Assembly (NCBI GenBank): GCA_041484255.1
Contig: JBGPHE010000001.1
Span: forward strand, 6,240 to 70,239
Reading direction: 5' to 3'
Source: Candidatus Nanoarchaeia archaeon
Lineage (GTDB): Archaea > Nanobdellota > Nanobdellia > Woesearchaeales > ARS49
Length of the DNA stretch: 64,000 nucleotides
The translations under genes and the position numbers were made by a program. Positions 23,627-53,965 of this stretch are shown here, piece after piece; within the stretch, counting starts at the first letter, position 1; each line of letters begins with the position of its first letter. The notes beneath the pieces are model-generated. The model searched no databases. It was not told where the DNA came from and was given only the letters and a program-made list of their open reading frames with translations.

Positions 23627-23917
23627 GTGAAAAAAGAGGGTGTTGAGAGTAAAGAGTACGAGAAATTCATACCGAGAGTCATCTTCACCTACTCGACGGA
23701 GCATCTTCTCAAGAAAGACAAGGTCAGATTCTATTACGCGCTGAAGGGCCGCGACGGAAAAACCGGCATCGTCAAGCGCTGCGCCATCGAACAGCTCGGC
23801 CGCACCGTGCTTCTCGTCCCGACGAAACACGCGGCAGATGTCGATGAATTCCTGAAGTACTGGAAGTGCGAATTCCAGCAGCGCCGCGTGCTCGTCGAGC
23901 CGGGAGTGGGCAAATGA
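23627..23917 (+). CDS. Small basic protein (96 aa) heading the giant-gene operon; GTG start, no internal Met
   Basis: ORF with GTG start 49 bp after TATA 23571-23578. Its TGA overlaps the ATG of giant gene 1 (ATGA at 23914-23917). Confidence 0.4.
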   Translation: MKKEGVESKEYEKFIPRVIFTYSTEHLLKKDKVRFYYALKGRDGKTGIVKRCAIEQLGRTVLLVPTKHAADVDEFLKYWKCEFQQRRVLVEPGVGK

Positions 23918-26900
23918 CTCCTGAAAAGCGCGTCGCGTTCGCCGTGCTCCTCTGCGCGGCGATTATCGGCGCAGGCGTGATGCTGCGCGATGCGCACGTG
24001 ACCGGCGATGCGACGTTCGGCACAACAGACTTCACGACGCAGGCAGTCGTCGCGCCCAAGCAGGTCATCCTCATCATCGTCGACGGAATGCAGTACAACC
24101 ATTACGTCACCATGCTGGGCTTCGGCAACCTGTCGAACTTCACGCGGCTGCTGAGCCGCGGCGGCTTCAACACCACGCTGAACATCACAAAGCACACCAG
24201 CACGGTCACCGCGCCGGGCAACGCAGAAATCTACACCGGATTGGGCAGCAGCATCACCGGCGTGACCTCGGACAACTGCAGCACGCCGGTGCCGGTCAAC
24301 ACCACCATCTTTGAGCGGCTCAAACAGTTCAACGCAAGCATCGCGACCGGGACTGTCTACGGCAAGCAGACCTGCTACATTCCGAACGGCGTGCTCGGCA
24401 ATGCCATGTCCGCAATCGACTGGTTCCAGAACCGGTCGCTGTACACGAATACGAACTGGACCGACAACGGCGATATTTGCGCATACGCCCGCAATGCCTC
24501 CACCAAGGCACAGGAGTTCATCGTCAACAACACCAACCGGTCGTTCTTCCTGGTACCGTACTTCGGCAACCCCGACTGCTCAGGCCATGTCGGCACGGAC
24601 AACTCGGTCAATTACAATAACTCCTTCATCGAGGTTGACTACGCGCTCGGCATCCTGCTGGACACGCTGCGCGACCAGGGCATCGAGAACAACACGGCGA
24701 TCATCATCAGCACCGACCACGGCTGGAACGAGGGAACCACAGGCCACTCAACGTTCAATGCGGACACCGCAATCATCCCCCTCATCACCAACAACCGCAG
24801 TGTCATTGCGAACGCGACCATCCTGGGCGTGCGCCAGCAGTGCGACATCGCACCGACCGTGCTGAGCTATTTCGGCGTGCCCTCGGCGAATTACTCAGAC
24901 ATCATCGCCAATGGCTGCTACTCGATGTACGACTCGCTGTTTGACACGCTCACCGGCTGCGCGACTATCAACGCGAGCACGACGCTCGGCCAGAACATCC
25001 AGGCGCCGGGCTCGGGAAGCTGCATCATCGTGAACGCGGACAATATCACGCTCAGCTGCGCAGGGTTCAGCATCGGCGGCAATGCGGCCGGCACCGGCAT
25101 CAATGTCACGAACCGCGCGAATGTCACCATCAAGGACTGCGTTCTTGAGAATTTCACCAACAACATTGTCCTCAACAGCACCAATGCAAGCGTCATCGTC
25201 AACACCACCGCCCGAAAGTCGACGTCCACAAGCATTCTTGTCAGGCAGGGCTTGCGCAACCTCCTCGCAAACAACACAGTCTCCGGCGATTTCATCGGCA
25301 TTCTGCTCTTCAACGGATCCAATAACACCCTGCGCAGCAACAACGTCAGCGGAATCTCGACCGGAATCACGCTGTTTTTCACGCAGAACAACACACTGAT
25401 CAATGATACCGGCGCGAGCACGTCAGGCACCGGCATTTTCCTCACCGCGTCTATCAACAACACGCTGAACAGCGTGCTCGCAACAAGCGTCAGCGGCAAC
25501 GGCCTGATGTTTTCCAGCATGGGTTTGGGAAACAACGTCATCGCGAATACGACCGGCCGCAGCAGCAGCGGCATCGGTGTGTACCTTACGAGCGGCGCGA
25601 ATCTCAATACCCTGCTGAACGTCACTGCCGCAAGCGACAGCAATGCGGCGCTCGCGTTTGACTTTTCCAGCGGAAGCAACCTGTTCAATGACACCACGCT
25701 CCTCAGCAACAGCACGTGGCTGTCGGCAGACAGCGACAGCTACTTCAATACCCTCACCAATGCCAGCTTCGTGTCCCAGTTTGGCGGCATCGCCGTCCTG
25801 AGAAACTTCACCCTTCCGAACGCGACGACCGTCACCCTCGCATCACTGAACATCACGAGCAACCGCGCGTTCCTGAACAGCACGAACCTGTCGTTCCTGA
25901 ACCAGACCGCAGTCATCACGCTGAACGGCGTCACGTCCGTCGACCCGAAGCCGCAGGTGGCCTTGGTCGATGGCGGGGCGTTCTCGGACTGCCTGCCGAC
26001 CGCAGACCCGTTCTGCACCGAACTGAGCTTCAGCGGCGGCGTGTTTGTCTTCAATGTCTCGCATTTCACGACCTTTGCGTCGTTTGAGAGCGCGGACGTG
26101 AATGTGACGCTGACCAAGTCAGACTCGCCCGACCCGGTGAACGCGAGCGGCTATCTGACCTACACTATTACAGTCAATGTCTCAGTGGGCAACGCAAGCA
26201 ATGTAACGCTTACCGATGTCTACCCTGCGCAAGTCATCTTCAATGGCTCCCAGCCCGCGCCGCTTGCCGGAACGAACAACACGTTTGTCCTGGGCAACCT
26301 GTCGCTGAACACCAGCACCGTCGTCAATATCACTGTGCTCGTGCTGAACGTGAGCAACAACACCATCATCAACAATACCGCGAACATCTCGTTCCAGAAC
26401 TCGACCGGCGGCATCGGACGGCTGAACGTGACTGAGAACACTACGGTCATCAACCTCACGTTCCCCGCGCCCTCGCCTTCGCCGACAAGCAGCGGCGGAA
26501 CCAGTGGCGGAGGCGGCTACAGCGTCAGGCCCACACCGAACGCTCCGTCAGTCGCTGCGTCGCAGAACTGCTTCGAAGGCTGGGCGTGCGAAGGCTGGAG
26601 CAGGTGCGAGAATGGCGCGCAGGAGCGCGCGTGCGTTGACCTGAATCACTGCGGCACCGAATCGCTCAAGCCCGCGACGACGCAGTCGTGCGCGAGCCCG
26701 CACGTGCAGGAGCTGGTGCAGGAAGAAGTCGTGGAGCAGCCCGCCGAGCTGCCCCCGCAGCAACCGCAACAGCCTATCCAGTTGCAGATGCAGGGTACAG
26801 AAACGTCTGCCGTGAAGACCGCGTTCTTCACATCCGGAAGCGCGCTGCTCTGGCTGCTCTTGTTCATCATCCTCGGCGGAATCATCGTCACGATCGCATA

Positions 26901-27228
26901 CGCGAAGTTCATGCACCGCGCTCCCGAAGCGCCCGAACCCGACCTTCCGCCCGCGCCGGGACGCGAAGAGCCGCTGCCCGCGCCTGAGCTTGACAATGGC
27001 CTTGCGCAAGAGCACGAAACGCCCTTTACTGAGGAGCTTGAGCTGCAGCCCGCGATAAGCAAGCCCGAACCAGAAGTGCAACGCGCGCTTCCCAAGCCTC
27101 GCGTGGCACGCAGCCGCGAAGAATTGGAGCAGATTGAACGCAAGCTCGCAAGCATTGAGAGTTCATTATCACGCAGCCGGCGCGCCGCACCAAAGCGCAG
27201 CAGCGCACGCAGGAGGACGCGCAAATGA
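23914..27228 (+). CDS. Giant surface protein 1 (1104 aa): signal anchor, nucleotide pyrophosphatase/phosphodiesterase (AlkP-superfamily) domain, parallel beta-helix repeats, DUF11 domain, six-Cys stalk module, TM helix, basic tail
   Basis: Single open frame; domain motifs described in findings; N-x-S/T-rich; C-terminal TM about 26830-26905. Stop overlaps the gene 2 ATG. Confidence 0.8.
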   Translation: MTPEKRVAFAVLLCAAIIGAGVMLRDAHVTGDATFGTTDFTTQAVVAPKQVILIIVDGMQYNHYVTMLGFGNLSNFTRLLSRGGFNTTLNITKHTSTVTAPGNAEIYTGLGSSITGVTSDNCSTPVPVNTTIFERLKQFNASIATGTVYGKQTCYIPNGVLGNAMSAIDWFQNRSLYTNTNWTDNGDICAYARNASTKAQEFIVNNTNRSFFLVPYFGNPDCSGHVGTDNSVNYNNSFIEVDYALGILLDTLRDQGIENNTAIIISTDHGWNEGTTGHSTFNADTAIIPLITNNRSVIANATILGVRQQCDIAPTVLSYFGVPSANYSDIIANGCYSMYDSLFDTLTGCATINASTTLGQNIQAPGSGSCIIVNADNITLSCAGFSIGGNAAGTGINVTNRANVTIKDCVLENFTNNIVLNSTNASVIVNTTARKSTSTSILVRQGLRNLLANNTVSGDFIGILLFNGSNNTLRSNNVSGISTGITLFFTQNNTLINDTGASTSGTGIFLTASINNTLNSVLATSVSGNGLMFSSMGLGNNVIANTTGRSSSGIGVYLTSGANLNTLLNVTAASDSNAALAFDFSSGSNLFNDTTLLSNSTWLSADSDSYFNTLTNASFVSQFGGIAVLRNFTLPNATTVTLASLNITSNRAFLNSTNLSFLNQTAVITLNGVTSVDPKPQVALVDGGAFSDCLPTADPFCTELSFSGGVFVFNVSHFTTFASFESADVNVTLTKSDSPDPVNASGYLTYTITVNVSVGNASNVTLTDVYPAQVIFNGSQPAPLAGTNNTFVLGNLSLNTSTVVNITVLVLNVSNNTIINNTANISFQNSTGGIGRLNVTENTTVINLTFPAPSPSPTSSGGTSGGGGYSVRPTPNAPSVAASQNCFEGWACEGWSRCENGAQERACVDLNHCGTESLKPATTQSCASPHVQELVQEEVVEQPAELPPQQPQQPIQLQMQGTETSAVKTAFFTSGSALLWLLLFIILGGIIVTIAYAKFMHRAPEAPEPDLPPAPGREEPLPAPELDNGLAQEHETPFTEELELQPAISKPEPEVQRALPKPRVARSREELEQIERKLASIESSLSRSRRAAPKRSSARRRTRK
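24052..24900 (+). other. Nucleotide pyrophosphatase/phosphodiesterase (type I phosphodiesterase, AlkP-superfamily) domain of giant protein 1
   Basis: Motifs in NPP-like order: IIVDG (24079-24093), KHTSTVTAPG...YTG (Thr nucleophile context, about 24205-24240), PYFGNPDCSGHVG (24571-24594), STDHGW (24707-24724). Confidence 0.6.
26569..26691 (+). other. Six-Cys membrane-proximal module, copy in gene 1 (CFEGWACEGWSRCENGAQERACVDLNHCGTESLKPATTQSC)
   Basis: Conserved pattern shared with 35943-36065 and 52951-53073. Confidence 0.7.
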
Positions 27229-30200
27229 GCGGCAACGCACAGAAGCGGACCGTGATGCTGCTCGTGCTTGCCTTGGGCCTGCTCGGCGTAGGTACTATGA
27301 TATTCGGCTCGACGCACAGCCCTGCCGCGCTGACCGGACTTGTTACTGACAATGCAAGCGTTCAGCCGGAAGCGCCTGCTGAGCAGCAGCCGATTCCCGA
27401 ATTGCAGGCAGAAGCGACGCCAGAACCGTCATTCTCCACCGAAGCGGCCGCTCCGCGGCTCGTCGATCCTGCGGTGGAACGAGCGCTTGCGGAGAACGGC
27501 ACCGCAGACATCATCATCATCCTCAAAGAAGACGCCGCGTCGCTGTTCGAAACCGAAACGAGCCAAGCAGATGCGCTCGCGCAGCGAAAGGCGTCTGTCG
27601 CGGCCGTGCGCACGGCGTTCGCCGCGGAAATGGGCGGCGGATTCGGAACTGCGAGCAACGCGTTCGAAGTCACGCGCGAGTATGATACGCTCAATGCCAT
27701 CGCGGCAACCATCACCAGCGTCGGCCTGGAAATCTTGAAGACGCGCCAGTCGGTCGAACAGATCGTGCTGGACCGCAGGCTCACGGTCGACCTTACCGTG
27801 AGCGTGCCGCTCATCGATGCGGACGACGTCTGGAACCTCACCGTCAACGGAAGCAACCTCACCGGCAAGGGCGAGGTCATCTGCATCATCGACACAGGCA
27901 TCGACGCCACGCACGTCGCGTTCACCAACAAGATTTTGCCCGGCCAGGACTATGTCAATGAAGACAGCAATCCCGCCGACGACGCGGGCCACGGCACGCA
28001 CGTCTCGGGCATCGCCGCGGGCAACAGCAGCCCGGTGCTCGGCGTCGCAAAGGACGCGAAGATCCTGCCCGTCAAGGTGTGCGACAGCGGCGGCACGTGC
28101 CAGGACACGGATATCCTTGCAGGCATCGACTTCTGCAACAACAACTCGGCGACCTACAACATCAGCGCGATTTCCGGCTCGCTCGGCGACAACAGCCAGT
28201 ACAACTCGACGACCTGCCCGACCACGTACGACAGCATCTTCGCGACGTCGAACTCCTTGGGGCTTATTCCGGTCTTCGCGTCGGGCAACAATGCGTTCAC
28301 GAACGGCATCAGCCACCCTGCCTGCTCGCCGTACGCCATCAGCGTGGGCTCCACGACCAAGGCAGACGCGATGAGCTCGTTCACAAACAGAGGGGGCGAC
28401 CGCCTGGACGTTCTCGCGCCCGGCAGCAGCATTGTTTCCGCGCTCATCACTGGCGGAACCGTCTCCGCATCGGGAACATCGATGGCCACGCCGCACGTCT
28501 CGGGAGCGATCGCGCTCATCCAGCAGAACCAGCGCGCGCTGAACCGCGCCATTGTCAACATCACCGACATGCGCACATTGCTCCAGCAGACCGGCGTGAA
28601 TGTCACGAGCTGGCAGCGCATCGACGTGTACAACGCGATCGCCAAGCTCAACCAGAACTACACCATCAACATCACGGACAACTCTATCGCGAACGGAACG
28701 ACACGCGGCGCAAAGGTGCGGTTCAGCAACTTCACCGATATGAGCAGGTTCGTGGATTGCGGCGTAGTCAGACCCAACTTTGTAGGCATCGACTCCGCAG
28801 CATGCCCGCAGCTGAACAAGAGCGCGCACATCACGTTCGCGAACATCACTGGCATCGGCGCCAGGCCGCTGCGCAACGGCGTGCCCTGCCCGCCCAGCAT
28901 CTGCCAGAACTTCACGTTCGGCAACGGCACGGTCGACTTCGACGTCACGGAGTTTTCAAACTACAGCAGCTTCAACCTGACGAACCTCACCGGCTGCGCG
29001 AACGTGAACGTCAGCTCGGTGCTGACGCAGAACGTCTCCAGCACGAGCAACTGCATCAACATTACTGGAAACAATGTCATCCTGTTCTGCAACGGATTCA
29101 CAATTGCGTTCGACACGGCAGGCGGCGGGCTTGACAACGGCATCAGGGCCAACCAGCGCCGCAATATCACGGTCGACAGCTGCATCATCAGAGATACCAA
29201 TGCAGGAGGCGCGGGCGCTGTGGGAATCGTCGTCAATGGGACGAACAACAGCATCTTCATCAACAACTTTATCCAAGTCAACGGAACGGCGAACAACAAC
29301 GGCTTCATCCTGGACTTGTTTGCGAATAATGTCACCATCGCCAACAACACCGTCAACTCGCGCGGAACGCTCGCGTTCGATTTCCCCATCCAAGTCAGGA
29401 ACCCCGTCAGCAATATCACCATCGCCAACAACACGCTCGTGACGGTGGGCTTGGGCAACAGCGAATGGGGCATTGACGACAGCGGGCTCCAGGACACAGT
29501 CGTCACCAATAATATAATCATTGCACTTTCGGACGGCGGCCTCAACTTCGGCTTTCGCGTGAATGCAGTGCCCCTCAATCTTCAGGTAAGCGACAACAAC
29601 ATCAGCGTGAACGGGAGCGGAAGCTATGCGCTCGTGTTCCCCGACTCTTTAGGGAGCACGCCCAATACCACATTCTCCAACAACGTACTGGGCACGACCA
29701 GCGGCTGGATTACCGTGGGCGCCTTCGCGCGAGTCAACATCACCAACACCACGTTCCGCATGCCGAACGGCAGCATCACCATCCCCGGAACGGTGCAGCT
29801 CAACGAATCGACGGACGTGCTGATTTCCAAGCTGAACATTTCTGCAAATCAGGCGTACCTGAACAGCACAAACCTGACCGCGCTCAACACGACCGCGATC
29901 ATCGCGCTGAACAGTGTCGGCTTCAATGATCCCAAGCCGCAGTTCAGGTTCGGCGAGACCGGCGCGTTCACCGACTGCACACCCACCGTCAACCCGTTCT
30001 GCACCGAGCTGGGCTTCAGCGGCGGCGTCTTCACGTTCAATGTCTCGCACTTCACCGGCTACATCAGCGCGGAAGGCGGCAGCGTCAACCTCACCGGCTG
30101 CGCGACCGTCAACGCGAGCACGGTGCTGACGCAGAACATCGCGTCCAATGACACGTGCCTCTTCACGAACGCGAGCAATATCGTCATCTCCTGCGCAGGG

Positions 30201-33200
30201 CACACCATCACGTACAATGCCAACGGAAGCGGCGCCCTGAGCGATTTCGGAATCAATGTCACGCGCTCATCCAACCTGACCATCACTGACTGCATCGTCC
30301 GCAACGGCAACCTGTCGAGCACCATCGGCGACGCGATGAGCGTGTTCTTCACGAATTACAGCACCTTCAACAACATCTCGCTTGCGGACAACGGCTCCAA
30401 CATCGGGCTGTTCATCATGACGTCGCACAATAACACGTTCGGAAACGATACTGTCCTGACAGGATCTGTTGAGCTGAACGCCATCGCGGAGAACAACTTC
30501 ACCGGCAATGCGTTCAATGGCTCCATTGACAATAGCAACAGCAGGCGGGACATCTTCACGTTCAACACGATGAACGCATCCGTCTCCCTCCAGTCAGGCG
30601 ACGCACGCCTGCGCTTCAACAACATCACCGTCTCCGGCGCGGGTCCGGGCATCAACACCGATCCCGCCGGACCGTTCGAGTTCACCGGCAACCGCGTCGA
30701 GGTGAACGGCGTGAACCCGACCGCGTTCCGCCTTGCCGCGAGCAACGGCAACTTCACCAACAACACGTTCCTTGCGAACGCGTCCGGCACGTCTGTCGCA
30801 ATCAGCATCGAGGCGAGCTCGTCAGGGAACTTCACCGGCAACAATTTCACCGCGCGCGGGACCGCCTCGACCGCGATCCGCTGGCAGTTCTCAGTCCCCA
30901 ACACGACGAGCTTCAGGGACACCGTCATCTCTTCAGACGCAAGCTGGATTGACATGAATCCGAGCGGCGCGGTCACGCCGTCCATCAATTACACGAACAC
31001 GACGTTCGTTTCGGGCAACGGCAGCATTAACATCATCGGCTTCGCGCAGCTGAACAACACCCAGAACGTCACGCTTGCCCGGCTCAATATCTCATCCAAC
31101 CGCGCGTTCCTGAACACTACGAACATCTCCGCATTCAACCAGACCGCAGTCATCGCGCTGACCGGCATCGGCTTCACTGACCCGAAGCCACAGGTCGCCT
31201 TTGTGGATGGCGGCGCGTTCTCGGACTGCTCGCCGACCGCGAACCCATTCTGCACTGAGATAAGTTATACGGGCGGCGTGTTCACGTTCAACACGTCGCA
31301 CTTTACCAGCTTTGACAGCGCGGAAAGCACCGTGACAAACTGCACGCTCGGACCTGTGCTGGTCAACAGCAGCCTCACGCTCGCGCAGGACCTTACCGGC
31401 AACGGCACCTGCCTCATCGCGAACACGAACAACATCGCCATTGACTGCGCAGGATTCGCCATCAACTTCGACCGCGGCGGAGGATTCGGCCCCATATTCG
31501 GCATCGCCGCGCAGAGAAAGACGAACATCAGCATCACCAGCTGCATCATCAGAAGCATCAACGCTTCGGGCCAGAACGGATACTCCATCAACTTCTCGAA
31601 CGTAACACAGTCGGTCATCACCAACAACACGCTCATCGCGAACGGGTCGAACTCGATCGGCATCTACATCGGGGTGAGCTCAGTCGGCGTCAATGTCACC
31701 AACAACACCATCGGCGCATCGCCTATCGGGTTCGTGGTCGGCGTCTCTATCGACAACTCGTCGTTCATCAACGTCAGGAACAGCATACTTATCGCCAACA
31801 GCAGCACCGGCCCTGCCGAGGGCATCCAAGCGACCTCCAACGCGCAATTCATCGCGGTGAGCAACAACAGCATCCGCGTGCTGCAGACTTCAGGCTCCCA
31901 GCCGACAGGATTTGTCATCAATGGCGGCAACGCCACATTCGCAGGCAATACTGTTGTAGTAAATCTGTCCGACACGAGCGACGCGACGGGAATCAGCGTG
32001 GGCGGCGGCGCGGACTTCGTGGTCGAGAACAACACCATTATCCTCGCAATCAACACGACAGACACCATCAACACCAAGCGGGCGTTCCAGCTCGCGTCGC
32101 TGAGCAACGCGGTCGTACGCAACAACACAATCGTCCTGCTTGGCTCTGCCAAGTTCTTCATGGGCATGCTGCTCTCCATCCTGAGCAACGTGACCATCGC
32201 GAATACGAACATCACGTCATTGGCAGAGACGAACACTTCGCTGATAGTCATCGACGGCGTCTTTGGCACAACAACCGTGACGCTGACGAACACAACCCTT
32301 TCCGCGCTCAATGACCCTTGGATCCAGCAAGAAGGAACCGCCGCAACCTCCTCGAACTTCACCAACACAACATTCATCGCGCAGAACGGCTCGGTCCAGT
32401 TCCCTGGATTGGTCCAGATAAACGGCACCAACAACGTGAGCGCGCAGCGGCTCAATATCACCGCGAACCTCGCCTTCCTCAACAGCACCAACCTGACGTT
32501 CCTCAACCAGACTGCAATCATCGCGCTGAAAGGCATCGTATCGGTCAGCCCGAAAGCGCAGGTCGCGTTCGTTGACGGCGGCGCATTCAGCGACTGCATC
32601 AGCACGGCGAACCCGTTCTGCACCAACCTCAGCTACGCAGGGGGCGTCTTCACGTTCAACACGTCGCACTTCACCAGCTACCAGAGCGCGGAGAGCGGGA
32701 CGAACATCACCGGATGCCCCATCACCATTAATGTGAGCACGACGCTGACGCAGAACTTGCAAAGCAACAGCAGCTGCATCACGTTCGGCAATGACAGCAT
32801 CGCGCTCGACTGCGGCGGATTCGCCCTCAACGGCACGCAGAACGGCACCGGCATCAATGCGACCGCAAGGAACAACATCTCCATCGTCAACTGCTTCGTC
32901 AATAACTTCACGCAGGATATCGTGCTCGACCGCGTCAACAACAGCGTGATGCGCAATGACACCGCGCGCAGCGCGGCGCAGGAAGGCGTCCTGCTCTACT
33001 CGGCCGTCAACGACCTCCTCGTGAACGTCTCGGGCGAGGGCGCGGTCAACCGGGACGGAATCCAGCTGGTCAATTCCACCACTGCAGGCACCAACAACAC
33101 GCTCATCGGCGTGAACGGCACGAGCAACAGCTCGTCAGGCGTGGGGCTGAATATCCAAATTGACAATACGACCGTCAATGACAGCAGGGGCGTAAGCCTC

Positions 33201-36200
33201 AACCACCGCGGCATCCAAATCCTCAGTTCGGGCAACCGCGCGACCAACCTCACCGGCATCGGCGTAGACGTCGGAATGCTGGTCACCACCGGCAGCTTCA
33301 ACAACGTGACGGGAAGCACCGGCATCGGCGTCCCCGGCCTCTCATTCAGCAGCGCAAGGAGCACGTACGCCAACAACCTCGGCATCAGCACGAATGGCAT
33401 CGCAATCAGCGTCGCGGGCGGCAACCTCACGCTCGTCAATAACACTGGCAGGAGCAATGCGACCTCAGGCATCAGAATCGACGGGGCAGACTTTAACCTG
33501 ACCGGCAACACCGGCGTCAGCAACACATCGGTCGGCATCCACTCGCCATTGAGTTTCGTCAACAGCATCGTTGTGGGCAACAACGGAACCGGTCCCGCCG
33601 GCATCTCCATCGGCGCAGGCGGCGGCGCGTTCAATGACACGTTCCTCAATAACGTCGGAACGGGCGTTGCAAGCGTGGGATTCGCGATCGGCGGCGACAA
33701 TCAGACTGCCATCAACAACACCGGAACAAGCAACGGCTCGTTCGGCATGCAATTCCTTACCGGCGGCGATAACCTTGCAGTGAACAACACAGGAATCAGT
33801 ACGGCAAGCAGCGGTATCGACGTGCGCGTCTACAGCAGGTCGCGGTTCCTGAATAATACCGCCAGCAGCGGGAGCGCCACGGCACTGGCAATCCTGGTCT
33901 TAAGCACTAATAACACCTTTGCCAACACCACACTCTTCACCAATGCGACTTGGATTATTACCGACGGGACAAGCCCCGACAACAACATCACGAACACGCT
34001 CTTCCAGGGCAGCGCAGGCAGCATCCGCGTCTTCGGCCTCGCGAACATCCCGGGAAGCGCCAACGTGAGCATTGCGCGGCTGAACACGAGCGCGAACCGC
34101 GCGTTCCTGAACAGCACGAACCTGACGTTCCTCAACCAGACCGGACAAGTCACGTTCACCGGCGCGACGAGCAACCAGGTGCTGGTGGACTTTGACGACG
34201 ACAACTCGTTCTCGTTCTGCGACGCGAGCATCTGTTCAGTCGTCAGCTTCGCGGGCGGCACGCTGGTTGTCAATGTCACGCACTTCACGACGTTCTCGTC
34301 GACCACCGGCAACTCGAACATCACGCTGACCAAGACCGACTCGCCCGACCCGGTCAATGCCAGCAGTAATCTGAGCTACCAGATTTCGGTCAATGTCACG
34401 TCCGACAGCCCGAGTAATATTACGCTGACCGACCAATACCCTGCGCAAGTCATCTTCCTCACGGCGCAGCCGTCGCCCATCGGCGGAACGAACAATACGT
34501 TCATTGTCGGCAATCTGACCGCGAATATGTCGTTCACGGTAAACGTCACCGTGCTCGTGCTGAACATCACCAACGGCACCGTCATCAACAACACTGCAAA
34601 CATCTCGTTCCAGAACAGCACGGGCAGCGTCATCGCGCTGAGCGTGACCGAGAACACCACCGTCAGCAATCCGCCGCAGATTAACGACAGCACGATCAGC
34701 GTGACCAAGACCGACACCCCCGACCCGGTCGAGAACGGCACGCAGCTCAACTATACTATCACGGTGACGGTCATCAGCGGCGTTTCCGCGTTCAATGTCA
34801 CGGTCAATGACACGTATCCGTCGCAGGTCATCTTCAACAGCGGCCAGCCGTCTCCGGTGCCGGGAACGAACACCACGTTCATCCTCGGCAACCTGTCTGC
34901 GGGCGCGGTCGTCGTGCTCAATATCACTGTGAATGTCTCGGCAGGCGTCATCAACGGCACCGTCATCAACAACACCGTCAATGTCACATTCCAGAACACG
35001 ACCGGCGGCCTGCTGAGCGCGCTCGCGAACGCGAGTACGACTGTGCAGAACGTGACGGTCAATGTCACAACGTTGTTCAACCTGAGCAACATCAGTGTCA
35101 TCAAGACCGACACGCCCGACCCGGTGACTGCAGGCGACATACTGACCTACCAAATCAATGTCACGAGTAACGGCAACGGCACCGCGTTCAACGTGATTGT
35201 CAATGACACGTACCCTGCGGAAGTTATCGCGTTCATGTCCTCCCCTCCGCTCGTTCCGGGAACGAACAACACGTACACGCTCGGCAACCTGACGCCCGGC
35301 ACGCTCTTCACCATCAACTTCAGCGTCGCGGTCAGGAACATCACGAACGGCACGGTCATCAACAACACCGTCAATGTCACGTTCCAGAACGAGACCGGTG
35401 GATTGTTCAGCAGAGTCACCACGCAGAACACCACCGTCCTGAACCCGCCAGTCTTCAACCTCAGCAATGTCAGCGTGACGAAGAGCGACACGCCCGACCC
35501 GGTCGAGAACGGCACGCAGCTCAACTATACTATTACGGTCACGAGCACGGGCAACGGCACGGCGTTCAATACAACCGTCATCGACACGTACCCTGCTGAA
35601 GTCGTCTTTAACACCGCCCAGCCGACGCCGAGTTCGGGCAATAACACGTTCATCATCGGCAACTTGACCGCGGGAACGGTTGTCGTGCTGAACATCACGG
35701 TCAATGTGACGCAGGTCGCAAACGGAACCGTCATCAACAACACCGTCAATGTCACGTTCCAGAACGAGTCGAGTGACTTGCTGAGCGCGCTTGCGAACAC
35801 GAGCACGCTGGTGCAGAACGTCACGCCGACGCCCACGCCTCCGACGCCGCAAGGCAGCAGCGGCGGAAGCGGTGGCGGCGGAGGATTCAGCATCAGACGC
35901 AATGAGACTGTCGCGGCAGGAGTTCCCGCCCCGTCAGGACCGTGCGTCGAAAGCTGGGCGTGCGAGCAGTGGGGCCAGTGCCAGGACGCCAGCCAGGCAA
36001 GAATCTGCGTCGACTTGAGCCAGTGCGGCACGGCGACATTGAAGCCGGCGACCGAGCAGCGCTGCGCGATTACGCCGCTGCGCGAGCAGCCGATACCTGT
36101 GGAGCCTGAACAGCCTGCGCCCGTGCAAGTGAGCGCGCCCGTTCCGGTTGTTGTGCAGGAGAAATCAAAGAGCTGGACGCTTGTAGGCATCCTGCCGGTC

Positions 36201-36731
36201 GCGATTGACGTATTGCTCATCCTCTTCGCGCTTATCGCAATGACGCACATGCTGCGTTACCGCAGCGATCGCGCGAGCGGGCACTGGCTGGCGGCAGTGG
36301 ACATCATCGGAGGAATCACACTCATCGCGCTTGTCGCACACTACATCATCAGCAGGGCATTCCTGCCGGTCGAGTACATCACCTTTGTCGTATTGCTGCT
36401 GTTTGTCGCAGTGCTGCGGCTTGCCGAGCGCGGCAGGGACTTCGGAGGAGCGCCGCGCGTTCCGCGCATCCCTGCATTGCCTGATGCGCCTGAGGAAATA
36501 GTCCTTGAAGACGAGCCCGCGCCGAAGAAAGCAGCAATCAAGGCTCCGAAGGCAGAGCACAAGCACGCGGGCCCGAAGAAGCCCTTGTTCAGCTTCTTCC
36601 AGCCCAAACCGAAGGTCGAGGACGACATGAAGGACGTCTTTGACTCGCTCGACCGCATCAGCACGCTGCTGGAGAGGAACAAAGTCACGATCAGAGCTCC
36701 GAAAAAGAAGAGCCGGGTGAGAAAAAAGTAA
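27225..36731 (+). CDS. Giant surface protein 2 (3168 aa): signal anchor, I9 propeptide, subtilisin S8 protease, four beta-helix blocks separated by two-Cys junction modules, 4 DUF11 units, six-Cys stalk module, 3 C-terminal TM helices, basic tail
   Basis: Single open frame of 9.5 kb. Catalytic triad motifs IIDTGID / HGTHVSG / GTSMATPHVSG. Confidence 0.8.
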   Translation: MSGNAQKRTVMLLVLALGLLGVGTMIFGSTHSPAALTGLVTDNASVQPEAPAEQQPIPELQAEATPEPSFSTEAAAPRLVDPAVERALAENGTADIIIILKEDAASLFETETSQADALAQRKASVAAVRTAFAAEMGGGFGTASNAFEVTREYDTLNAIAATITSVGLEILKTRQSVEQIVLDRRLTVDLTVSVPLIDADDVWNLTVNGSNLTGKGEVICIIDTGIDATHVAFTNKILPGQDYVNEDSNPADDAGHGTHVSGIAAGNSSPVLGVAKDAKILPVKVCDSGGTCQDTDILAGIDFCNNNSATYNISAISGSLGDNSQYNSTTCPTTYDSIFATSNSLGLIPVFASGNNAFTNGISHPACSPYAISVGSTTKADAMSSFTNRGGDRLDVLAPGSSIVSALITGGTVSASGTSMATPHVSGAIALIQQNQRALNRAIVNITDMRTLLQQTGVNVTSWQRIDVYNAIAKLNQNYTINITDNSIANGTTRGAKVRFSNFTDMSRFVDCGVVRPNFVGIDSAACPQLNKSAHITFANITGIGARPLRNGVPCPPSICQNFTFGNGTVDFDVTEFSNYSSFNLTNLTGCANVNVSSVLTQNVSSTSNCINITGNNVILFCNGFTIAFDTAGGGLDNGIRANQRRNITVDSCIIRDTNAGGAGAVGIVVNGTNNSIFINNFIQVNGTANNNGFILDLFANNVTIANNTVNSRGTLAFDFPIQVRNPVSNITIANNTLVTVGLGNSEWGIDDSGLQDTVVTNNIIIALSDGGLNFGFRVNAVPLNLQVSDNNISVNGSGSYALVFPDSLGSTPNTTFSNNVLGTTSGWITVGAFARVNITNTTFRMPNGSITIPGTVQLNESTDVLISKLNISANQAYLNSTNLTALNTTAIIALNSVGFNDPKPQFRFGETGAFTDCTPTVNPFCTELGFSGGVFTFNVSHFTGYISAEGGSVNLTGCATVNASTVLTQNIASNDTCLFTNASNIVISCAGHTITYNANGSGALSDFGINVTRSSNLTITDCIVRNGNLSSTIGDAMSVFFTNYSTFNNISLADNGSNIGLFIMTSHNNTFGNDTVLTGSVELNAIAENNFTGNAFNGSIDNSNSRRDIFTFNTMNASVSLQSGDARLRFNNITVSGAGPGINTDPAGPFEFTGNRVEVNGVNPTAFRLAASNGNFTNNTFLANASGTSVAISIEASSSGNFTGNNFTARGTASTAIRWQFSVPNTTSFRDTVISSDASWIDMNPSGAVTPSINYTNTTFVSGNGSINIIGFAQLNNTQNVTLARLNISSNRAFLNTTNISAFNQTAVIALTGIGFTDPKPQVAFVDGGAFSDCSPTANPFCTEISYTGGVFTFNTSHFTSFDSAESTVTNCTLGPVLVNSSLTLAQDLTGNGTCLIANTNNIAIDCAGFAINFDRGGGFGPIFGIAAQRKTNISITSCIIRSINASGQNGYSINFSNVTQSVITNNTLIANGSNSIGIYIGVSSVGVNVTNNTIGASPIGFVVGVSIDNSSFINVRNSILIANSSTGPAEGIQATSNAQFIAVSNNSIRVLQTSGSQPTGFVINGGNATFAGNTVVVNLSDTSDATGISVGGGADFVVENNTIILAINTTDTINTKRAFQLASLSNAVVRNNTIVLLGSAKFFMGMLLSILSNVTIANTNITSLAETNTSLIVIDGVFGTTTVTLTNTTLSALNDPWIQQEGTAATSSNFTNTTFIAQNGSVQFPGLVQINGTNNVSAQRLNITANLAFLNSTNLTFLNQTAIIALKGIVSVSPKAQVAFVDGGAFSDCISTANPFCTNLSYAGGVFTFNTSHFTSYQSAESGTNITGCPITINVSTTLTQNLQSNSSCITFGNDSIALDCGGFALNGTQNGTGINATARNNISIVNCFVNNFTQDIVLDRVNNSVMRNDTARSAAQEGVLLYSAVNDLLVNVSGEGAVNRDGIQLVNSTTAGTNNTLIGVNGTSNSSSGVGLNIQIDNTTVNDSRGVSLNHRGIQILSSGNRATNLTGIGVDVGMLVTTGSFNNVTGSTGIGVPGLSFSSARSTYANNLGISTNGIAISVAGGNLTLVNNTGRSNATSGIRIDGADFNLTGNTGVSNTSVGIHSPLSFVNSIVVGNNGTGPAGISIGAGGGAFNDTFLNNVGTGVASVGFAIGGDNQTAINNTGTSNGSFGMQFLTGGDNLAVNNTGISTASSGIDVRVYSRSRFLNNTASSGSATALAILVLSTNNTFANTTLFTNATWIITDGTSPDNNITNTLFQGSAGSIRVFGLANIPGSANVSIARLNTSANRAFLNSTNLTFLNQTGQVTFTGATSNQVLVDFDDDNSFSFCDASICSVVSFAGGTLVVNVTHFTTFSSTTGNSNITLTKTDSPDPVNASSNLSYQISVNVTSDSPSNITLTDQYPAQVIFLTAQPSPIGGTNNTFIVGNLTANMSFTVNVTVLVLNITNGTVINNTANISFQNSTGSVIALSVTENTTVSNPPQINDSTISVTKTDTPDPVENGTQLNYTITVTVISGVSAFNVTVNDTYPSQVIFNSGQPSPVPGTNTTFILGNLSAGAVVVLNITVNVSAGVINGTVINNTVNVTFQNTTGGLLSALANASTTVQNVTVNVTTLFNLSNISVIKTDTPDPVTAGDILTYQINVTSNGNGTAFNVIVNDTYPAEVIAFMSSPPLVPGTNNTYTLGNLTPGTLFTINFSVAVRNITNGTVINNTVNVTFQNETGGLFSRVTTQNTTVLNPPVFNLSNVSVTKSDTPDPVENGTQLNYTITVTSTGNGTAFNTTVIDTYPAEVVFNTAQPTPSSGNNTFIIGNLTAGTVVVLNITVNVTQVANGTVINNTVNVTFQNESSDLLSALANTSTLVQNVTPTPTPPTPQGSSGGSGGGGGFSIRRNETVAAGVPAPSGPCVESWACEQWGQCQDASQARICVDLSQCGTATLKPATEQRCAITPLREQPIPVEPEQPAPVQVSAPVPVVVQEKSKSWTLVGILPVAIDVLLILFALIAMTHMLRYRSDRASGHWLAAVDIIGGITLIALVAHYIISRAFLPVEYITFVVLLLFVAVLRLAERGRDFGGAPRVPRIPALPDAPEEIVLEDEPAPKKAAIKAPKAEHKHAGPKKPLFSFFQPKPKVEDDMKDVFDSLDRISTLLERNKVTIRAPKKKSRVRKK
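27462..27798 (+). other. Subtilase propeptide (inhibitor I9-like) of giant protein 2
   Basis: IIIILKEDAASLFE...FEVTREYDTLNAIAATITSVGLEILKTRQSVEQIVLDRRL precedes the catalytic domain. Confidence 0.55.
27850..28630 (+). other. Subtilisin-like serine protease (S8) catalytic domain of giant protein 2
   Basis: Asp at about 27888-27906 (IIDTGID), His at 27990-28010 (HGTHVSG), Asn at about 28279-28296 (ASGNN), Ser at 28471-28498 (GTSMATPHVSG). Confidence 0.8.
34310..35830 (+). repeat. Array of 4 DUF11-type (TIGR01451 conserved repeat domain) units in gene 2, about 380 nt each
   Basis: Each unit: [IV]T[KL]TD.PDPV......L.Y.I.V.......NVT..D.YP..V.F...QP.P..GTNNTFI.GNLT.....V.NITV.V.N.....VINNT.N..FQN. 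Confidence 0.65.
35943..36065 (+). other. Six-Cys membrane-proximal module, copy in gene 2 (CVESWACEQWGQCQDASQARICVDLSQCGTATLKPATEQRC)
   Basis: Same Cys/Trp spacing as the gene 1 and gene 3 copies. Confidence 0.7.
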
Positions 36732-36738
36732 TCAATTG

Positions 36739-39700
36739 ATGGGGGACATGGGCAGAAACAGACGAGGGGTGGTGTCTGAACGGACGCTTATTGGCATTGT
36801 GCTACTTGCAGGGCTGCTCGGCATCGGCGTGATGCTCTGGGCGACGGGAATCGTCTCCTTTGCGCAGCAGCACGGCGTCACCGGCAGCGCGGTCGCGTCC
36901 ATCACCGGCCTCGCAGCGGATGATCTCGAAACGCAGCCGTCATTCACGGCCACGCCCGCTCCGAACACGGCGCCTATCTATAGAGGCCCTGCCAGCTTCA
37001 GCACGCCGCAGGACACAGCACTCACGATTGACTTGTCGCAGTACTTCTCCGATGCGGAAAACGACGAACTCACCTTCATCGCGTCGTCCGAAGACGTCAT
37101 CGCAGTCGCCATCGACGGCAACGCGCTCACGCTGACGCCTGCGGCAGGCTTCGCGGGCGAGCGTTCGCTGACCGTCATCGCGTCAGACGGCGTCAACCTC
37201 GCGCGCACGCCGGTCAAGATTGTCGTGGAAGGCACGCAGGCCACGCCGCCTGCACCGCAGCAGGAAGCTCCTGCGCCTGTGGAGCAGCCGCCCGCGACCA
37301 ACGAGTCCGCAGCGAACGAGACGCCGTTCAATACGCAGGAAGAAGAATTCACCAATCCTGTATTCAACACGCAAGTCACGAGCATCAGCGCCTGCACGAA
37401 CATCAGCACGCCGGGCGAGTACGCGCTCAGCACCGACCTCTCGCGGAACATCACCTGCATCGTCATCCAGACAGACAACGTGAGCTTCAGCTGCGCAGGC
37501 CACACTATCACCTGGGACACGCAAGGTCTGCGAAACATCTCAGGCTTCACGAGCTTCATCTCCGCGATCAACATCAACAAATCAGGCAGGACGCTCTTCA
37601 ATGTCACAGTCAGGGACTGCCGCCTGATCGACGGCACTGTCGGCGGATTCAACGACCACGCGATCGTGCTGCAGGACACGAACGATTCGCTCATTTTCAA
37701 CAACACCCTCGTTGCATCCGGCGAGACGTCGCTGGGAATTGAGATTGTTCGGACGGGAAACATCAACATCTCAAGCAACCGCATCAATGCGTCGTCGTTC
37801 GGAGGCGCTCAGGCGATCGCCAACGCGATCCAGTTCAATCTTTTCAGCAATAATGTCAGCATCTCCGACAATGACATCCGCGGATTCCTTTCCGGCAGCG
37901 GAATCAGGACGGTCGGCGTGATGGTTGACGCGACCTCGAATCCCCACGATGTGGAAGTCGTCGGGAACAGTATCACCGTCAACTCGACCGGTGGAAGCGC
38001 AACCTCAACAGGGATGAACGGCGTCACCGGCTTCGGCACATTCCTCAACGCGACCAACAATGACGTGCAGGCGTTCGGCTCAGGACCGAGCGGCGTGCTG
38101 GCAAATGGGGCGTTCTTCAACCGCATCCTCGCGCGGGGTTCCACCGCAGAGGGTCTGCGTGTCGGAGAGCTTGCAGACTCCAATAATATCACTGTGAATG
38201 GCAGCACCACTGGCGCGCTCGTGGGGTTTAACGGCAACTCGACATACAGCAACAACCGGCTCATCGCGACCGGCAGCTGGATATATACTTCCTTGAACGG
38301 GAACACTACTTTCATCAACACCACGTTTGTCAACGCAAATGGCACCCTCCTGTTCTACAATTTCTACATTGATGATGTCGTCATTGTCCAGCAGAGCGAC
38401 CTCAATACCACCATCAACCACGCCTATGTGAACAGCGTCGACTTCCCGTTCCTGAACACGAGCGCGGAGATCTTCCTGCAAGGATTCAATCTCACGAACA
38501 ACAAGCCCGTGGTCGACTACACGGACACCAACCACTTCCAGGGCTGCCCGGACACCTGCACGCTGCTCGAGACGGGCGACAACTTCATCCGCTTCACCGT
38601 CACGCACTTCACGACCTACTCGTCTTCGGACCTGGTCCTGCTGCTCGAAAAGTCCGACAGCACCGACCCGGTGCGCATCGGCTCGCTGTTCAATTACAGC
38701 GTCGCCGTGAGCGTGCTGAACGGCAACGCGAACAATGTCACGCTCACCGACCTGTACCCGCTTGAAGTTGTCTTCAATTCCTCGCAGCCTGACCCGATCG
38801 ACGGCACGAACGACACGTTCATCCTGGGCAACCTGACCGAGAACACGACGTTCATAGTGAACATCACGGTGCAGTCGCTGACGAACGATTCAGGCATCGT
38901 CAACGTCACCAACGGCACCGTCATCAACAACACCGTGAACATCACGTTCCAGAACGACACGAGCGACGTGTTCACGCTGAACGACACCGAGGAGACGACG
39001 CTCGTTGAGGCGACCGAGAACTTCGAGCCGCTCTCGGACTGCGCAGTCATCAATACCAGCTCGTTCCTGACGACGAGCGTTTCGGGCACGGGCACGTGCA
39101 TCACCATCGGCAATAACAGCATCACGCTGGAATGCGCAGGGAACACGATAACGTATGCGACAACAGGCCCGGGAAGCGCTATTTTCGCGGAAGACAAGTA
39201 TAATTTCACGGTGCGGAACTGCACGCTCGTGCTCGGCGACCTCAACAGGCTCTCCCTGTATGACTCGCCAGCCATCAACGCGACGAACACCACGAGCGGA
39301 GTCAACAACCGTATCGACGGCTCCTCGTTCCGCCTGCTCAATTACTTCTACCAGGACGGTTTGCCGCAGCAGAACTGCGGCGACCTCTCATTGAATGACT
39401 CAGCCTTCACCGGCAACGCCACGTGCACGAACATCACCTTTGTTGCGCGGGCGCGTATCAGGGTGAACTCGACCGCGGTCTCCAACAACTCAATCGCGTT
39501 TATCACGGACAACTTCCTGCTCGGGGTGCGCGCGTTCATCAACGCGAACGGCACCGGATACCCTGGAGGCGCGGATGGTAATGCGAACGGCTCCGGCCCC
39601 GGAGGCGGCATCGACCCGGTCAGTATCAATCGCGGCGGCGGCGGCGCAGGACACGGCGGAATCGGCGGCCAGAGCAATGTGCCGCAGGGCGCAGGCGGAA

Positions 39701-42700
39701 GGCCGTACGGCAGCTCCCTGAGCCCGATGACGCCCGGCAGCGGCGGCGCAACCGGTGACGGCGGCACCCACACCGGCGGAAACGGCGGCGGCGCGGTCTC
39801 CATCTTCGGCCAGAACGTCGTGCTGAACGGTGTCATCAGTGCGAGCGCAGGCAATGGGTCTGACGGCACCAATTCCGGCGGCGGCGGCTCGGGAGGAAGC
39901 ATCCTCGTGGTCGCAAATACGCTCTTCGGAAACGGCAGCTTCACTGCGCGCGGCGGCTTCGGCGGCAATGACCAAAGCACAGGAATCCAGTCCGGCGGCT
40001 CGGGCTCGGGTGGCCACATCGCAGTGAAGTTCAACACGAGCACGATGAATATCACGAGCGCGCACGCGCCCGGAGCGGAGAACGTGACCGCATTGGTCAA
40101 TCTCGGACAGCCGGGAACGGTCGGTTTCCTGGACATGGACGACAGCATCCTGTCCATCACTGAAGGCTGGAGATGGTCCAGCGAGGACGCGGCAGTCTGG
40201 AACTACACCGTCATCAACCTCACGAACGCGTACACGCACACGAACGAGAGCACGGTGAACATCACCGCAGTCCTGATTGTCCTGCACAACGCGAGCATCA
40301 GCAAAGAGAACGTGACCACCGGCATCGACGTCAATGTCTCCCTCACCATAAGCGCGGAGAATTTCGTGATGGACCCCTCGGAGATTGACGGAGCAGTCAT
40401 CAATATCACCGCAGGGAACTTCACGCTGGGCGCAGACTCGCTCATCAATGCGACCGGCACGGGCTTTGAAGGCGGTTTCAATGGCAATTCGAATGGTTCC
40501 GGTCCCGGAGGCGGCATCGATCCGGTCAACTTCAACCGCGGCGGCGGTGGAGCGGGCCACGGCGGCATCGGCGGCCAGAGCAATGTCGTCCAGGGCGCGG
40601 GCGGCAGGCCGTACGGCAGCGCGCTCAACCCGTTCACCTTTGGAAGCGGCGGGGGAACCGGCGAAAGCGGCAACCACCCAGGCGGAAACGGAGGCGGCAT
40701 CGTCATTATCAGCGCGAGCCACATCATTCTCAATGGCACCATTAATGCAGACGGCGGCAATGGGTCTGACGGCACCAATTCCGGCGGAGGCGGCTCGGGC
40801 GGCTCCATCAATATCATCACCGATGCGCTTGAGGGCAGCGGCAACCTGAGCGCGCGCGGCGGCTATGGCGGATGGGACCAGAGCACAGGCATCCAAGCCG
40901 GCGGCTCGGGAGCGGGCGGCCACATCATCGCGCGGTTCAATGCCAGTACGTTCCCGGTGACCAACGCGCACGTCGAACAAACAGAGAACGTCTCCGGGCT
41001 GGGCTTCTTCAGCCAGCCGGGAACGCTCGGCTTCATCGACATCGACGACGACATCCTCACGATTGTAGAAGGCTGGCGATGGACAAGCGAGGACACGGAC
41101 GTCTGGAACTTCACCGTCATCAACCTGAGCAATGCGTACACGCGCACGAACGAAAGCGCCGTGAGCGTCGATGCGCTGCGGTTCACGCTGGAGAACTCGT
41201 CGATCACCCAGGAAAACCTGACCTTCGGCATCCACGTGAACACGACATTCAGCGTCAATGCGAGCGTGGTGCTGATGAACCGCTCGCTCATCGTCAACCT
41301 GACGGTTGTGAACATCACCGCGGCGGACGTCACCATCCTCGAAGACGCAGCCATCAACCTGACCGGCACGGGCTTTGAGGGTGGCTTCAACGGCAACTCC
41401 AACGGCTCAGGTCCCGGTGGAGGCATCGACCCGGTTAACTTCAACCGCGGCGGCGGTGGAGCGGGCCACGGAGGCATCGGCGGCCGGAGCAATGTCGTCC
41501 AGGGCGCAGGCGGCAGGCCGTATGGAAGCTCGCTCAACCCGCTCACCTTGGGCAGCGGCGGGGGAACCGGCGAAAACGGCAACCACCCTGCAGGAAACGG
41601 CGGCGGCCTCGCCATCATCAGCGGCACACGCGTGAATATCAGCGGAACGGTAAGCGTGGACGGCGGCAATGGAACTGACGGCACCGATTCCGGCGGCGGC
41701 GGCTCAGGAGGAAGCATTTTCATCACCGCAGACTCCTTTGACGGCACCGGCGGATTGCTCTCGAGCGGCGGCTTCGGCGGCTGGGACCAGAGCACAGGCA
41801 TCCAGTCCGGCGGTTCGGGCGCGGGCGGACACATCATCGCGCAGTTCAACACCAGCACGTTCCCCATCGCCAACGCGCACGTCACCGGAACGGAAAACGT
41901 CAGCGCGCTGGTCTTTTACAGCCAGCCCGGAACGCTCGGATTCATTGATATCGATGACGATACGCTCACGATTTCAGAAGGCTGGCGCTGGACAAGCGAG
42001 GACACAGACGTCTGGAACTTCACCGTCATCAATGTGACCGACGCGTTCACCCGTTCGAATGACAGCAGCGTGACTATCTCCTCAGGCACGCTCACGTTCA
42101 CCAATGCGTCGTTCACGCAGGAGAACCTGACGGTCGACTACCAGCTCAACCTGACGCTCAGCGCCGCCGCAGACACCATCGCGCTGAACAATTCGCTCAT
42201 CACCAACCTCACACAGGTGAACCTCAGCGCAGGCAACCTGAGCGTGCAGGATGATGCAGTCATCGCCGTCGTCGGGACAGGATTTGCCGGCGGCGCAATC
42301 AGCCAGAACGGTTCCGGACCGGGCGGTGGCGTCATCAATGACGGCTTCACGCGCGGCACCGGCGCAGCACACGGCGGCAAGGGAGGACAGCCGGCAGGAG
42401 GAATCATCACGGTCGCGCGCGGCCCGTACGGAAGCACACTGAATCCTGACACGCTCGGTTCGGGAGGCTCGGGAAGCGCGCAGACGCCCGGCGGCTCAGG
42501 CGGCGGCGTCATCTTCATCAGCGCGGCGCGCGCAAGCATCAACGGCACGCTCAACGCGGACGGCGCGAACGGCACGGACGGATCAAGCGTCAACACCGGC
42601 GGAGGAGGCTCGGGAGGCAGCATCGCCATCGTCGCAGGAATCTTTGAAGGCACCGGCACCATCACTGCCCGCGGAGGAAACGCAGGAACGTCGTTCTTCG

Positions 42701-53785: not shown

Positions 53786-53965
53786 GTGGGTTTAACCAGA
53801 AAGCTTCAGCGGACGAAGAAAGATCAGTATACGCTGACGATTCCAAAAGCATTAGTGGAACTGCTCAACCTCAAGGAGCAGGACGAGATCGAGTTTAACC
53901 TTGTTGACGGCAATATCACGCTGAAGAAGTCGGCGCGCAAGCGGGGTGAGAAGGATGCGAAGTAA
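53786..53965 (+). CDS. AbrB/MazE (SpoVT-AbrB, swapped-hairpin) family small DNA-binding protein (59 aa), GTG start
   Basis: Translation VGLTRKLQRTKKDQYTLTIPKALVELLNLKEQDEIEFNLVDGNITLKK... matches the AbrB-type pattern (..tiPk.l.e.l.l..gd.v....dg..i.L.k). GGGGAG lies 8 nt upstream. Under 60 aa, so absent from the ORF track. Overlaps the giant gene 4 start by 11 nt. Confidence 0.5.
   Translation: MGLTRKLQRTKKDQYTLTIPKALVELLNLKEQDEIEFNLVDGNITLKKSARKRGEKDAK

Follow-up and report, generated by a model that had tools for sequence, protein, structure and literature searches.

In a stretch of 64,000 nucleotides (nt) from Candidatus Nanoarchaeia archaeon (contig JBGPHE010000001.1, assembly GCA_041484255.1; hereafter, the window), two neighboring giant genes, g2 and g3, each contain a junction (J) module followed by an array of DUF11 units. 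The original prediction held that a block of ~600 nt at the start of these arrays is nearly identical in the two genes as a result of gene conversion or module exchange. We find no recent gene conversion tract between g2 and g3 at this block. Instead, the junction + DUF11 cassettes of the two genes probably have a more recent common ancestor than the sequences flanking them, the outcome of an old exchange that was followed by purifying selection. The extra identity of the block is due to purifying selection on the protein that is specific to this pair and is strongest over the N-terminal half (strands A-D) of the first DUF11 unit. The whole analysis is based on the assembled sequence of one genome. 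The features on which it rests are as follows:

27225..36731, plus strand: g2, an intact giant open reading frame (ORF) of 3168 amino acids (aa)
36736..53535, plus strand: g3, an intact giant ORF of 5599 aa
34071..34310, plus strand: g2 junction module, supported by an alignment of 19 homologous modules, with strands of the AlphaFold2 (AF2) model at residues 24-70
34311..34670, plus strand: g2u1, the first DUF11/CLIPPER unit of g2 (type A), supported by Pfam PF01345, the unit alignment, and AF2
50308..50547, plus strand: g3 junction module, the paralogue of g2 34071-34310, with 70% aa identity
50548..50907, plus strand: g3c1, the first unit of the terminal DUF11 array of g3, with 83-84% aa identity to g2u1
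34323..34481, plus strand: g2 copy of a 53-aa invariant core, corresponding to strands A-D of the first DUF11 unit
50560..50718, plus strand: g3 copy of the core, with 0 replacement and 19 synonymous differences from the g2 copy

The block itself is real. As had been noted, the order of modules is the same in both genes, a junction module and then the first DUF11 unit, and both peptides quoted in support are exact translations. The g2 sequence 34071-34691 aligns in register and without gaps to g3 50308-50928 (an offset of 16237), so that the g2 range for which conversion had been claimed, 34075-34650, pairs with g3 50312-50887. A BLASTN comparison returned a colinear match that is far beyond chance (34095-35824 against 50332-52058, E = 0). 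The level of identity was overestimated, however. In place of the ~90% proposed, the two copies share 77% of nucleotides (79% of aa) over the claimed range. Identity is 81% (86% of aa) over 34221-34560 and reaches 88% only in the 159 nt of the core (34323-34481, 53 codons), where aa identity is 100%.

Nor does the identity lie far above that of other paralogous modules, as the original prediction had it. When whole DUF11 units are compared, g2u1-g3c1 (78.8% DNA identity) is matched by g3c4-g3c5 (79.4%), g2u2-g2u4 (77.6%), and g2u4-g3c6 (76.8%). A 609-nt pair within g3 (42289/43126) is 80-81% identical, and internal tracts of a fourth giant gene, g4, are 92-96% identical over the stretches defined there, with a single 90-nt window at 100%. 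Within the g2/g3 block, exact matches extend to 38 nt at most, a length that equals or falls below the runs found in several other paralogue pairs. The block is therefore not unique in DNA identity. What it does contain is the longest exact peptide found in more than one of the four giant genes of the window, the 53 aa of the core.

Recent gene conversion wipes out synonymous as well as replacement differences. Divergence was estimated by the NG86 method and Jukes-Cantor (JC) distances, which are used here near saturation. The core carries 19 synonymous differences at ~38 synonymous sites [a proportion of differing synonymous sites (pS) of 0.50, or a JC-corrected dS of ~0.84] and no replacements at ~118 non-synonymous sites (dN of 0). 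For comparison, the junction has a pS of 0.45, the wider block (34221-34560) one of 0.47, the remainder of the array one of 0.56, and the last unit pair one of 0.54. Fisher tests of the core or the block against the rest of the array, and of the block against the last unit, gave p values of 0.33-0.76, none of them significant. At conserved residues of the block, the fraction of identical codons is 0.64-0.66. For identical residues of g2u1-g3c1 it is 0.66, which ranks 14th among the 91 DUF11 unit pairs (background over all 91 pairs, 0.60 +/- 0.06); 0.50-0.52 is expected from codon usage. In a GENECONV-style permutation test of silent-site runs over the whole g2-g3 cassette, the longest run was 12 identical silent codons (p = 0.38). 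As a positive control, we used a tandem repeat within g4, where silent-codon identity is 0.82-0.93 in tracts and exact runs extend to 103, 64, and 53 nt.

In a recently converted tract, synonymous divergence would be lower than in the flanks; in the core it is not. The step from high identity to conversion of a ~600-nt block fails at this point: all differences in the core are synonymous, and silent-site divergence is ordinary. We also saw no sign at the block of diversification by ongoing conversion. A recent ectopic conversion event that homogenized the g2 and g3 copies and served as a route to surface diversification could appeal to the longest shared peptide lying inside the block, to the sister relationship of the g2 and g3 junction + DUF11 (J-D) modules (100% bootstrap), and to the proximity of the proposed start coordinate to a real breakpoint at ~34155. 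Set against the 19 synonymous differences in 53 codons, a pS no lower than that of the flanks or of other unit pairs, the outcome of the run test, an exact run of 38 nt compared to 103 nt in g4, and the 77% identity found in place of 90%, such an event is very unlikely.

Replacement sites behave differently. At the rate observed in the rest of the junction and first DUF11 unit (J + D1; a proportion of differing non-synonymous sites, pN, of ~0.22), ~26 replacements would be expected in the core, and none was observed. The core includes the putative isopeptide Lys (in TKTD) and Asp (in TLTDQYP). Across all unit pairs, conservation of the core columns is unremarkable (0.575 versus 0.594 for other columns), while in g2u1-g3c1 their identity is 1.00 versus 0.71 for other columns, which makes the constraint specific to this pair. 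Homologues in other genomes vary freely at the core positions. A 53-aa segment has thus remained frozen in two paralogues through synonymous saturation, which we regard as a mildly curious feature. The pair-specific constraint may come from a common partner of the two proteins or from the interface between the junction and the first stalk domain. A further suggestion, that the core is a surface reserved for docking, which two different giant adhesins have to display in identical form, is possible but doubtful. Candidate docking partners would be a common host receptor; an anchoring, processing, or glycosylation factor used by both proteins; or the two proteins themselves, docking to each other. 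If the suggestion is true, the docking surface would be a defined interaction epitope in host attachment by DPANN archaea.

Module exchange between the giant genes, the second part of the original prediction, is upheld by tree incongruence only; the size and age of the exchange, and the argument for it, differ from those proposed. The exchanged unit is not ~600 nt long. It extends over the junction and the entire DUF11 array, ~1.7 kb in g2 and ~2.5 kb in g3:

~34155..35830, plus strand: exchanged stalk cassette as present in g2, with most of J and four DUF11 units (approximate boundaries)
~50392..52830, plus strand: exchanged stalk cassette as present in g3, with most of J and six DUF11 units

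Bootstrap trees were built by a custom neighbor-joining procedure with outgroups from other genomes included. In the tree of 19 junction + DUF11 modules, the modules at g2 34071 and g3 50308 are sisters with 100% bootstrap support. Identity to these two modules is 45-60% for other paralogues in the window and 55-61% for homologues from other organisms. A tree of the 240 aa located upstream of 21 junction modules gives a different picture: only 0.7% of bootstraps recover a g2+g3 clade, and g2 tends to group with the homologue L013_10001 (53%) and g3 with g1 (49%). In BLASTP searches, the g3 upstream segment scores highest against g1 (154 bits), compared to 68 bits against its positional counterpart in g2.

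Counts of informative sites among g1, g2, and g3 lead to the same contrast. Sites supporting g2=g3, g1=g3, and g1=g2 number 34/55/21 in the 300 aa upstream, 49/8/14 in J + D1, and 11/51/18 in the C-terminal part, the last counted in a genafpair alignment. By chi-square test, the upstream segment differs from J + D1 with a p of ~1e-7, and the C-terminal part does so with a p of ~1e-12. The maximum-likelihood breakpoint lies at ~34155 of g2, within the junction module. At the other end, identity collapses past ~35830 in g2 and ~52830 in g3; the C-terminal parts of the two proteins are 35% identical when aligned pairwise and are poorly aligned by three-way MAFFT (13%). Between these limits, the first and last unit pairs have equal dN (0.142 for g2u1-g3c1 and 0.147 for g2u4-g3c6), which indicates that the whole array co-diverged. 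No compositional signature of a foreign cassette was found, with GC content at third codon positions (GC3) uniform across the joins (0.79-0.86). Within g3, units b1-b2 (48505-49254) are duplicated as c2-c3 (50920-51666) with 73.9% DNA identity, which accounts for part of the difference between four and six units; units c4-c5 form a tandem pair.

The site counts can be read without any exchange. If the whole tail of g2 and g3 came from a single duplication, with the junction and DUF11 units evolving more slowly than the flanks and the core most slowly of all, the colinearity of the two tails from the beta-helix to the C-terminal tail would follow. Across genomes, J-D is indeed the best-conserved part (45-61% identity versus ~30-39% for upstream segments), and unequal rates can distort three-taxon site counts. 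We nevertheless consider a single duplication unlikely. It would have to accommodate a g2+g3 clade found in 0.7% of bootstraps of the upstream outgroup trees, an upstream g2-g3 identity (33-36%) no higher than that to homologues from other genomes, and a J-D identity of 76% between g2 and g3 when homologues from other genomes reach 61% at most. In the C-terminal part, it is contradicted by 51 g1=g3 sites against 11 g2=g3 sites.

Two further readings bear on the nature of the copies. The contig probably derives from metagenome assembly, in which repeated modules are prone to being joined wrongly; if the g3 cassette had come by such an error from the g2 orthologue of another, related organism in the sample, the low dN/dS over the cassette would fit as well, as in a comparison of orthologues. 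Such a chimera would take two mis-joins, both in frame and both at domain boundaries. The arrays have different numbers of units (four versus six) and different content, c2-c3 is related to another part of g3, GC3 is uniform over the joins (0.80-0.86), and no identical bridge longer than 38 nt is present, so that we regard a chimeric contig as highly improbable. Diversity-generating retroelements (DGRs) are known in DPANN archaea with surface proteins among their targets, according to one report (PMC5758913), and the two copies of the block might be taken for a template and a variable repeat. Both copies are embedded domains of intact genes, and the mismatch spectrum between them is symmetric, consisting mostly of third-position C/G and C/T differences rather than adenine-specific ones. 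Differences in the core are all synonymous, the opposite of DGR mutagenesis. This candidate was rejected on the symmetric, synonymous spectrum, and its probability is close to nil.

Several points weigh against an old exchange of the cassette. Scans of protein, GTDB genome, and metagenome collections turned up no close relative with orthologues of the two genes, the best outside matches being at 58-61% aa identity. The exchange consequently has neither a date nor a direction, and concerted evolution and orthology are inseparable across species. The beta-helix flanks are repetitive and only 30-40% identical, and trees of the upstream segment are weak (49% for g1+g3), although rejection of the g2+g3 clade is still strong. 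Part of the contrast in the three-taxon site counts could be due to segment-specific rate shifts and not to exchange. For all pairs, synonymous divergence is too close to saturation to separate older from younger events within the "old" class, and the interval for pS in the core is wide (roughly 0.34-0.66).

With these points taken into account, an old exchange of the stalk cassette followed by purifying selection is still the history we favor. As to direction and mechanism, we infer that one gene may have acquired the stalk cassette of the other by ectopic recombination, gene conversion, or cassette duplication. The cassette would have been copied after the flanks of g2 and g3 had diverged, and later gain or loss of DUF11 units would have led to the present arrays of four and six. 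The exchange is placed in the distant past because synonymous sites have since come near saturation and unit numbers have changed.

The junction + DUF11 arrangement is widespread in the locus. Six such modules are located in the window (g1 25837; g2 34071; g3 38401, 44062, and 50308; and g4 59067), and they are also found in related genomes. The junction module itself occurs at 25837, 29829, 31040, 32442, 34071, 38401, 44062, 50308, and 59067. Its pattern (...N[RK]AFLNS.NL.FLN...C....C...F.VTHFT.YS.) recurs wherever a beta-helix head ends, and metagenome-assembled genomes (MAGs) of Woesearchaeota show conservation of the module. No Pfam family was reported over the junction module in whole-protein scans. 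In the structural model, the g2 junction is predicted to be a small beta-sandwich capping the beta-helix, with the motifs CDASIC and VTHFTT. The segment upstream of the g3 44062 module groups with L010_1407 and L013_15185 (100% bootstrap), and the g4 59067 module groups with L010_15454 (80%); judging from these groupings, some super-modules look orthologous across genomes. Each giant protein is built of super-modules that consist of an enzyme or beta-helix head, a junction beta-sandwich, and at least one DUF11 stalk domain (CLIPPER, a CnaA-like Ig domain).

By profile and fold, the DUF11 units studied here are ordinary DUF11/CLIPPER members. PF01345 scores are 77.7 bits for g2 and 184.8 bits for the C-terminal half of g3, with a Pfam gathering cutoff of 24.6. 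Residues 82-199 of the AF2 model are all beta with an Ig-like fold and a per-residue confidence (pLDDT) of 80-89; mean pLDDT is 73 overall and ranges from 77 to 89 by 10-residue block over the DUF11 part. Foldseek matches in the Protein Data Bank (PDB) include the isopeptide pilin BcpA, SdrE, and the CLIPPER structure 9IFR. In a nine-sequence alignment, the putative isopeptide Lys K88 (TKTD) is invariant, as are N173 and N174, and an Asp (TLTDQYP in g2u1) lies 33 residues past this Lys in g2u1 and in most of the other sequences of the DUF11 unit alignment and the alignment of 19 modules. The Lys-Asp spacing of g2u1 equals that of Lys715-Asp748 in 9IFR, with the isopeptide bond in g2u1 being putative.

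The organism from which the window originates is most likely a Woesearchaeota-like DPANN archaeon. Housekeeping genes of the window are archaeal (the thermosome, on the minus strand at 5396-7024, FtsZ, PGK, and GluRS). The closest homologues of the studied region come from MAGs labeled Woesearchaeota or Nanoarchaeia, and a few from MAGs labeled Methanosarcinales. Overall GC content is 57.5%. The scan of the 64-kb window found no tRNA genes, and no Rfam family reached its gathering score in the 64 kb. From position 23866 to its end, the window is occupied by four tandem plus-strand giant genes, g1-g4. The remaining features of these genes are the following:

23866..27228, plus strand: g1, 1120 aa, supported by its ORF, Pfam matches, and transmembrane (TM) segments
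g1, order of parts: phosphodiesterase/sulfatase-type domain, beta-helix, junction, one DUF11 unit, Cys-rich domain, TM segment, basic tail
25837..26460, plus strand: g1 junction + DUF11 module, an outgroup paralogue 57-60% identical in aa sequence to its counterparts in g2 and g3
g2, order of N-terminal parts: N-terminal TM segment, S8 subtilase, four beta-helix + junction super-modules, four DUF11 units
g2, order of C-terminal parts after the DUF11 units: Cys-rich domain, TM segments, basic tail
g3, contents: Gly-rich repeats, three junction + DUF11 modules, four Laminin-G domains, nine DUF11 units
g3, C terminus: TM segment and basic tail
53955..63998, plus strand: g4, more than 3348 aa, starting at ~53955 and continuing past the end of the window
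59067-59690, plus strand: g4 junction + DUF11 module
55062..58264, plus strand: g4 tandem repeat with a period of 1524 nt (the positive control)

Pfam assigns a phosphodiesterase/sulfatase-type domain and a beta-helix to g1; an S8 subtilase, beta-helix, and DUF11 to g2; and four Laminin-G domains and nine DUF11 stretches to the C-terminal half of g3. All four giant proteins have an N-terminal hydrophobic segment, and in g1, g2, and g3 a C-terminal TM segment is followed by a short basic tail (~84-103 aa after the last hydrophobic segment). N-x-S/T sequons occur at 5.5-6.8 per 100 aa in g1-g4 compared to 0-0.5 per 100 aa in cytoplasmic proteins of the window, and Asn makes up 10-15% of residues in the four proteins. 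The density of sequons, together with the N- and C-terminal TM segments, supports an extracellular location. Their sequences point to membrane-anchored, heavily N-glycosylated, adhesin-like surface proteins.

In g1 (26527-26712), g2 (35910-36070), and g3 (52912-53100), a small Cys-rich domain (pattern C.E.W.CE.WG.C.....R.C.D.S.CGT) separates the DUF11 array from the C-terminal TM segment. It is followed by three hydrophobic segments in g2 and by one each in g1 and g3. The start of g2 overlaps the stop of g1 (ATGA, 27225-27228), and g3 starts with TTG at 36736, 4 nt past the end of g2, with an ATG directly after, at 36739. The tight packing of the giant genes suggests that they are co-transcribed. 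Long antisense ORFs overlie them (one, of 538 aa, spans 34236-35852 of the minus strand) and seem to be side effects of the high GC3 (0.8-0.86) of the coding strand.

Other repeats are found in g3 and g4. The g4 tandem repeat is a mosaic with 81% DNA identity overall, and its exact runs are located at 55957/57481 (103 nt), 56223/57747 (64 nt), and 56460/57984 (53 nt). This repeat is the locus's real candidate for recent gene conversion or duplication and the place to study ongoing homogenization. The N-terminal region of g4 (53991-54428) shares 72% DNA identity with that of g3 (36787-37236), and g4 59322-60953 shares 72.6% with g3 44332-45933; these matching segments represent super-modules common to g3 and g4. 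Gly-rich repeats (e.g., GGGAGHGGIGG) recur in g3 with a period of ~906 nt (39533-42093 versus 40439-42996, 71%). The 609-nt pair mentioned above, which is offset by 837 nt (42289-42897 versus 43126-43734, 80-81% identical), has a silent-codon identity of 0.76. Neither the Gly-rich repeats nor this pair has a Pfam match.

Taken together, these results illustrate that high nucleotide identity between paralogous modules need not imply recombination; at the g2/g3 block, it is entirely a by-product of aa conservation. They also portray giant DPANN surface proteins as assembled from head, junction, and DUF11-stalk super-modules that are swapped between neighboring genes over long timescales. Modular cassette exchange in giant adhesin-like genes is already known, and g2/g3 is a new, fairly ordinary example. 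The practical value is modest: domain boundaries have been placed, and a single 53-aa segment under unusual constraint could guide experimental work on DPANN cell-surface interactions.

Ectopic (non-allelic) gene conversion between tandem paralogues gives a cassette an ancestry different from that of its flanks, and the breakpoints fall at domain boundaries or close to them. The g2/g3 cassette has both properties. It differs in the lack of a tract of depressed synonymous divergence, the event being old and overlain by purifying selection. In the general design of the proteins, the locus can be compared to the SPEARE proteins of Nanohaloarchaeota (PMC6642349), which are likewise giant, mostly extracytoplasmic DPANN surface proteins with a TM helix near the C terminus and contain a serine protease (as does g2), laminin-G (as does g3), and other adhesion domains. 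The intracellular type III restriction-enzyme-like domain that defines SPEARE proteins is absent from the proteins studied here, which gave no such Pfam match and end, after the last hydrophobic segment, in a basic tail of just ~84-103 aa.

DUF11 (PF01345) was recently characterized as the CLIPPER domain, the stalk of fibrillar adhesins (PMC12617251; PDB 9IFR). The units of the window resemble it in their above-cutoff PF01345 match, predicted Ig-like beta-sandwich, tandem arrangement within surface proteins of great length, matches in fold to pilins and adhesins with isopeptide bonds and to 9IFR, and 33-residue Lys-Asp spacing. They are unlike it in belonging to a DPANN archaeon, in that the arrays are preceded by a conserved junction beta-sandwich without a Pfam match, and in being anchored by a C-terminal TM helix and basic tail and not by a sortase/archaeosortase signal.

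Giant1-5 of Apilactobacillus kunkeei (PMC12863079) are also encoded by consecutive genes for extracellular proteins of 3000-8000 aa. There, too, tree topologies are incongruent between parts of the genes, and no recent conversion is indicated between paralogues of one genome, as at the site examined here. The A. kunkeei study covered many strains and detected recombination between alleles, whereas our analysis concerns one genome and a probable old exchange between paralogues. Domain content differs as well: beta-solenoid and alpha-helical repeats make up Giant1-5, while beta-helix, LamG, and DUF11 domains make up the giant proteins of the DPANN locus.

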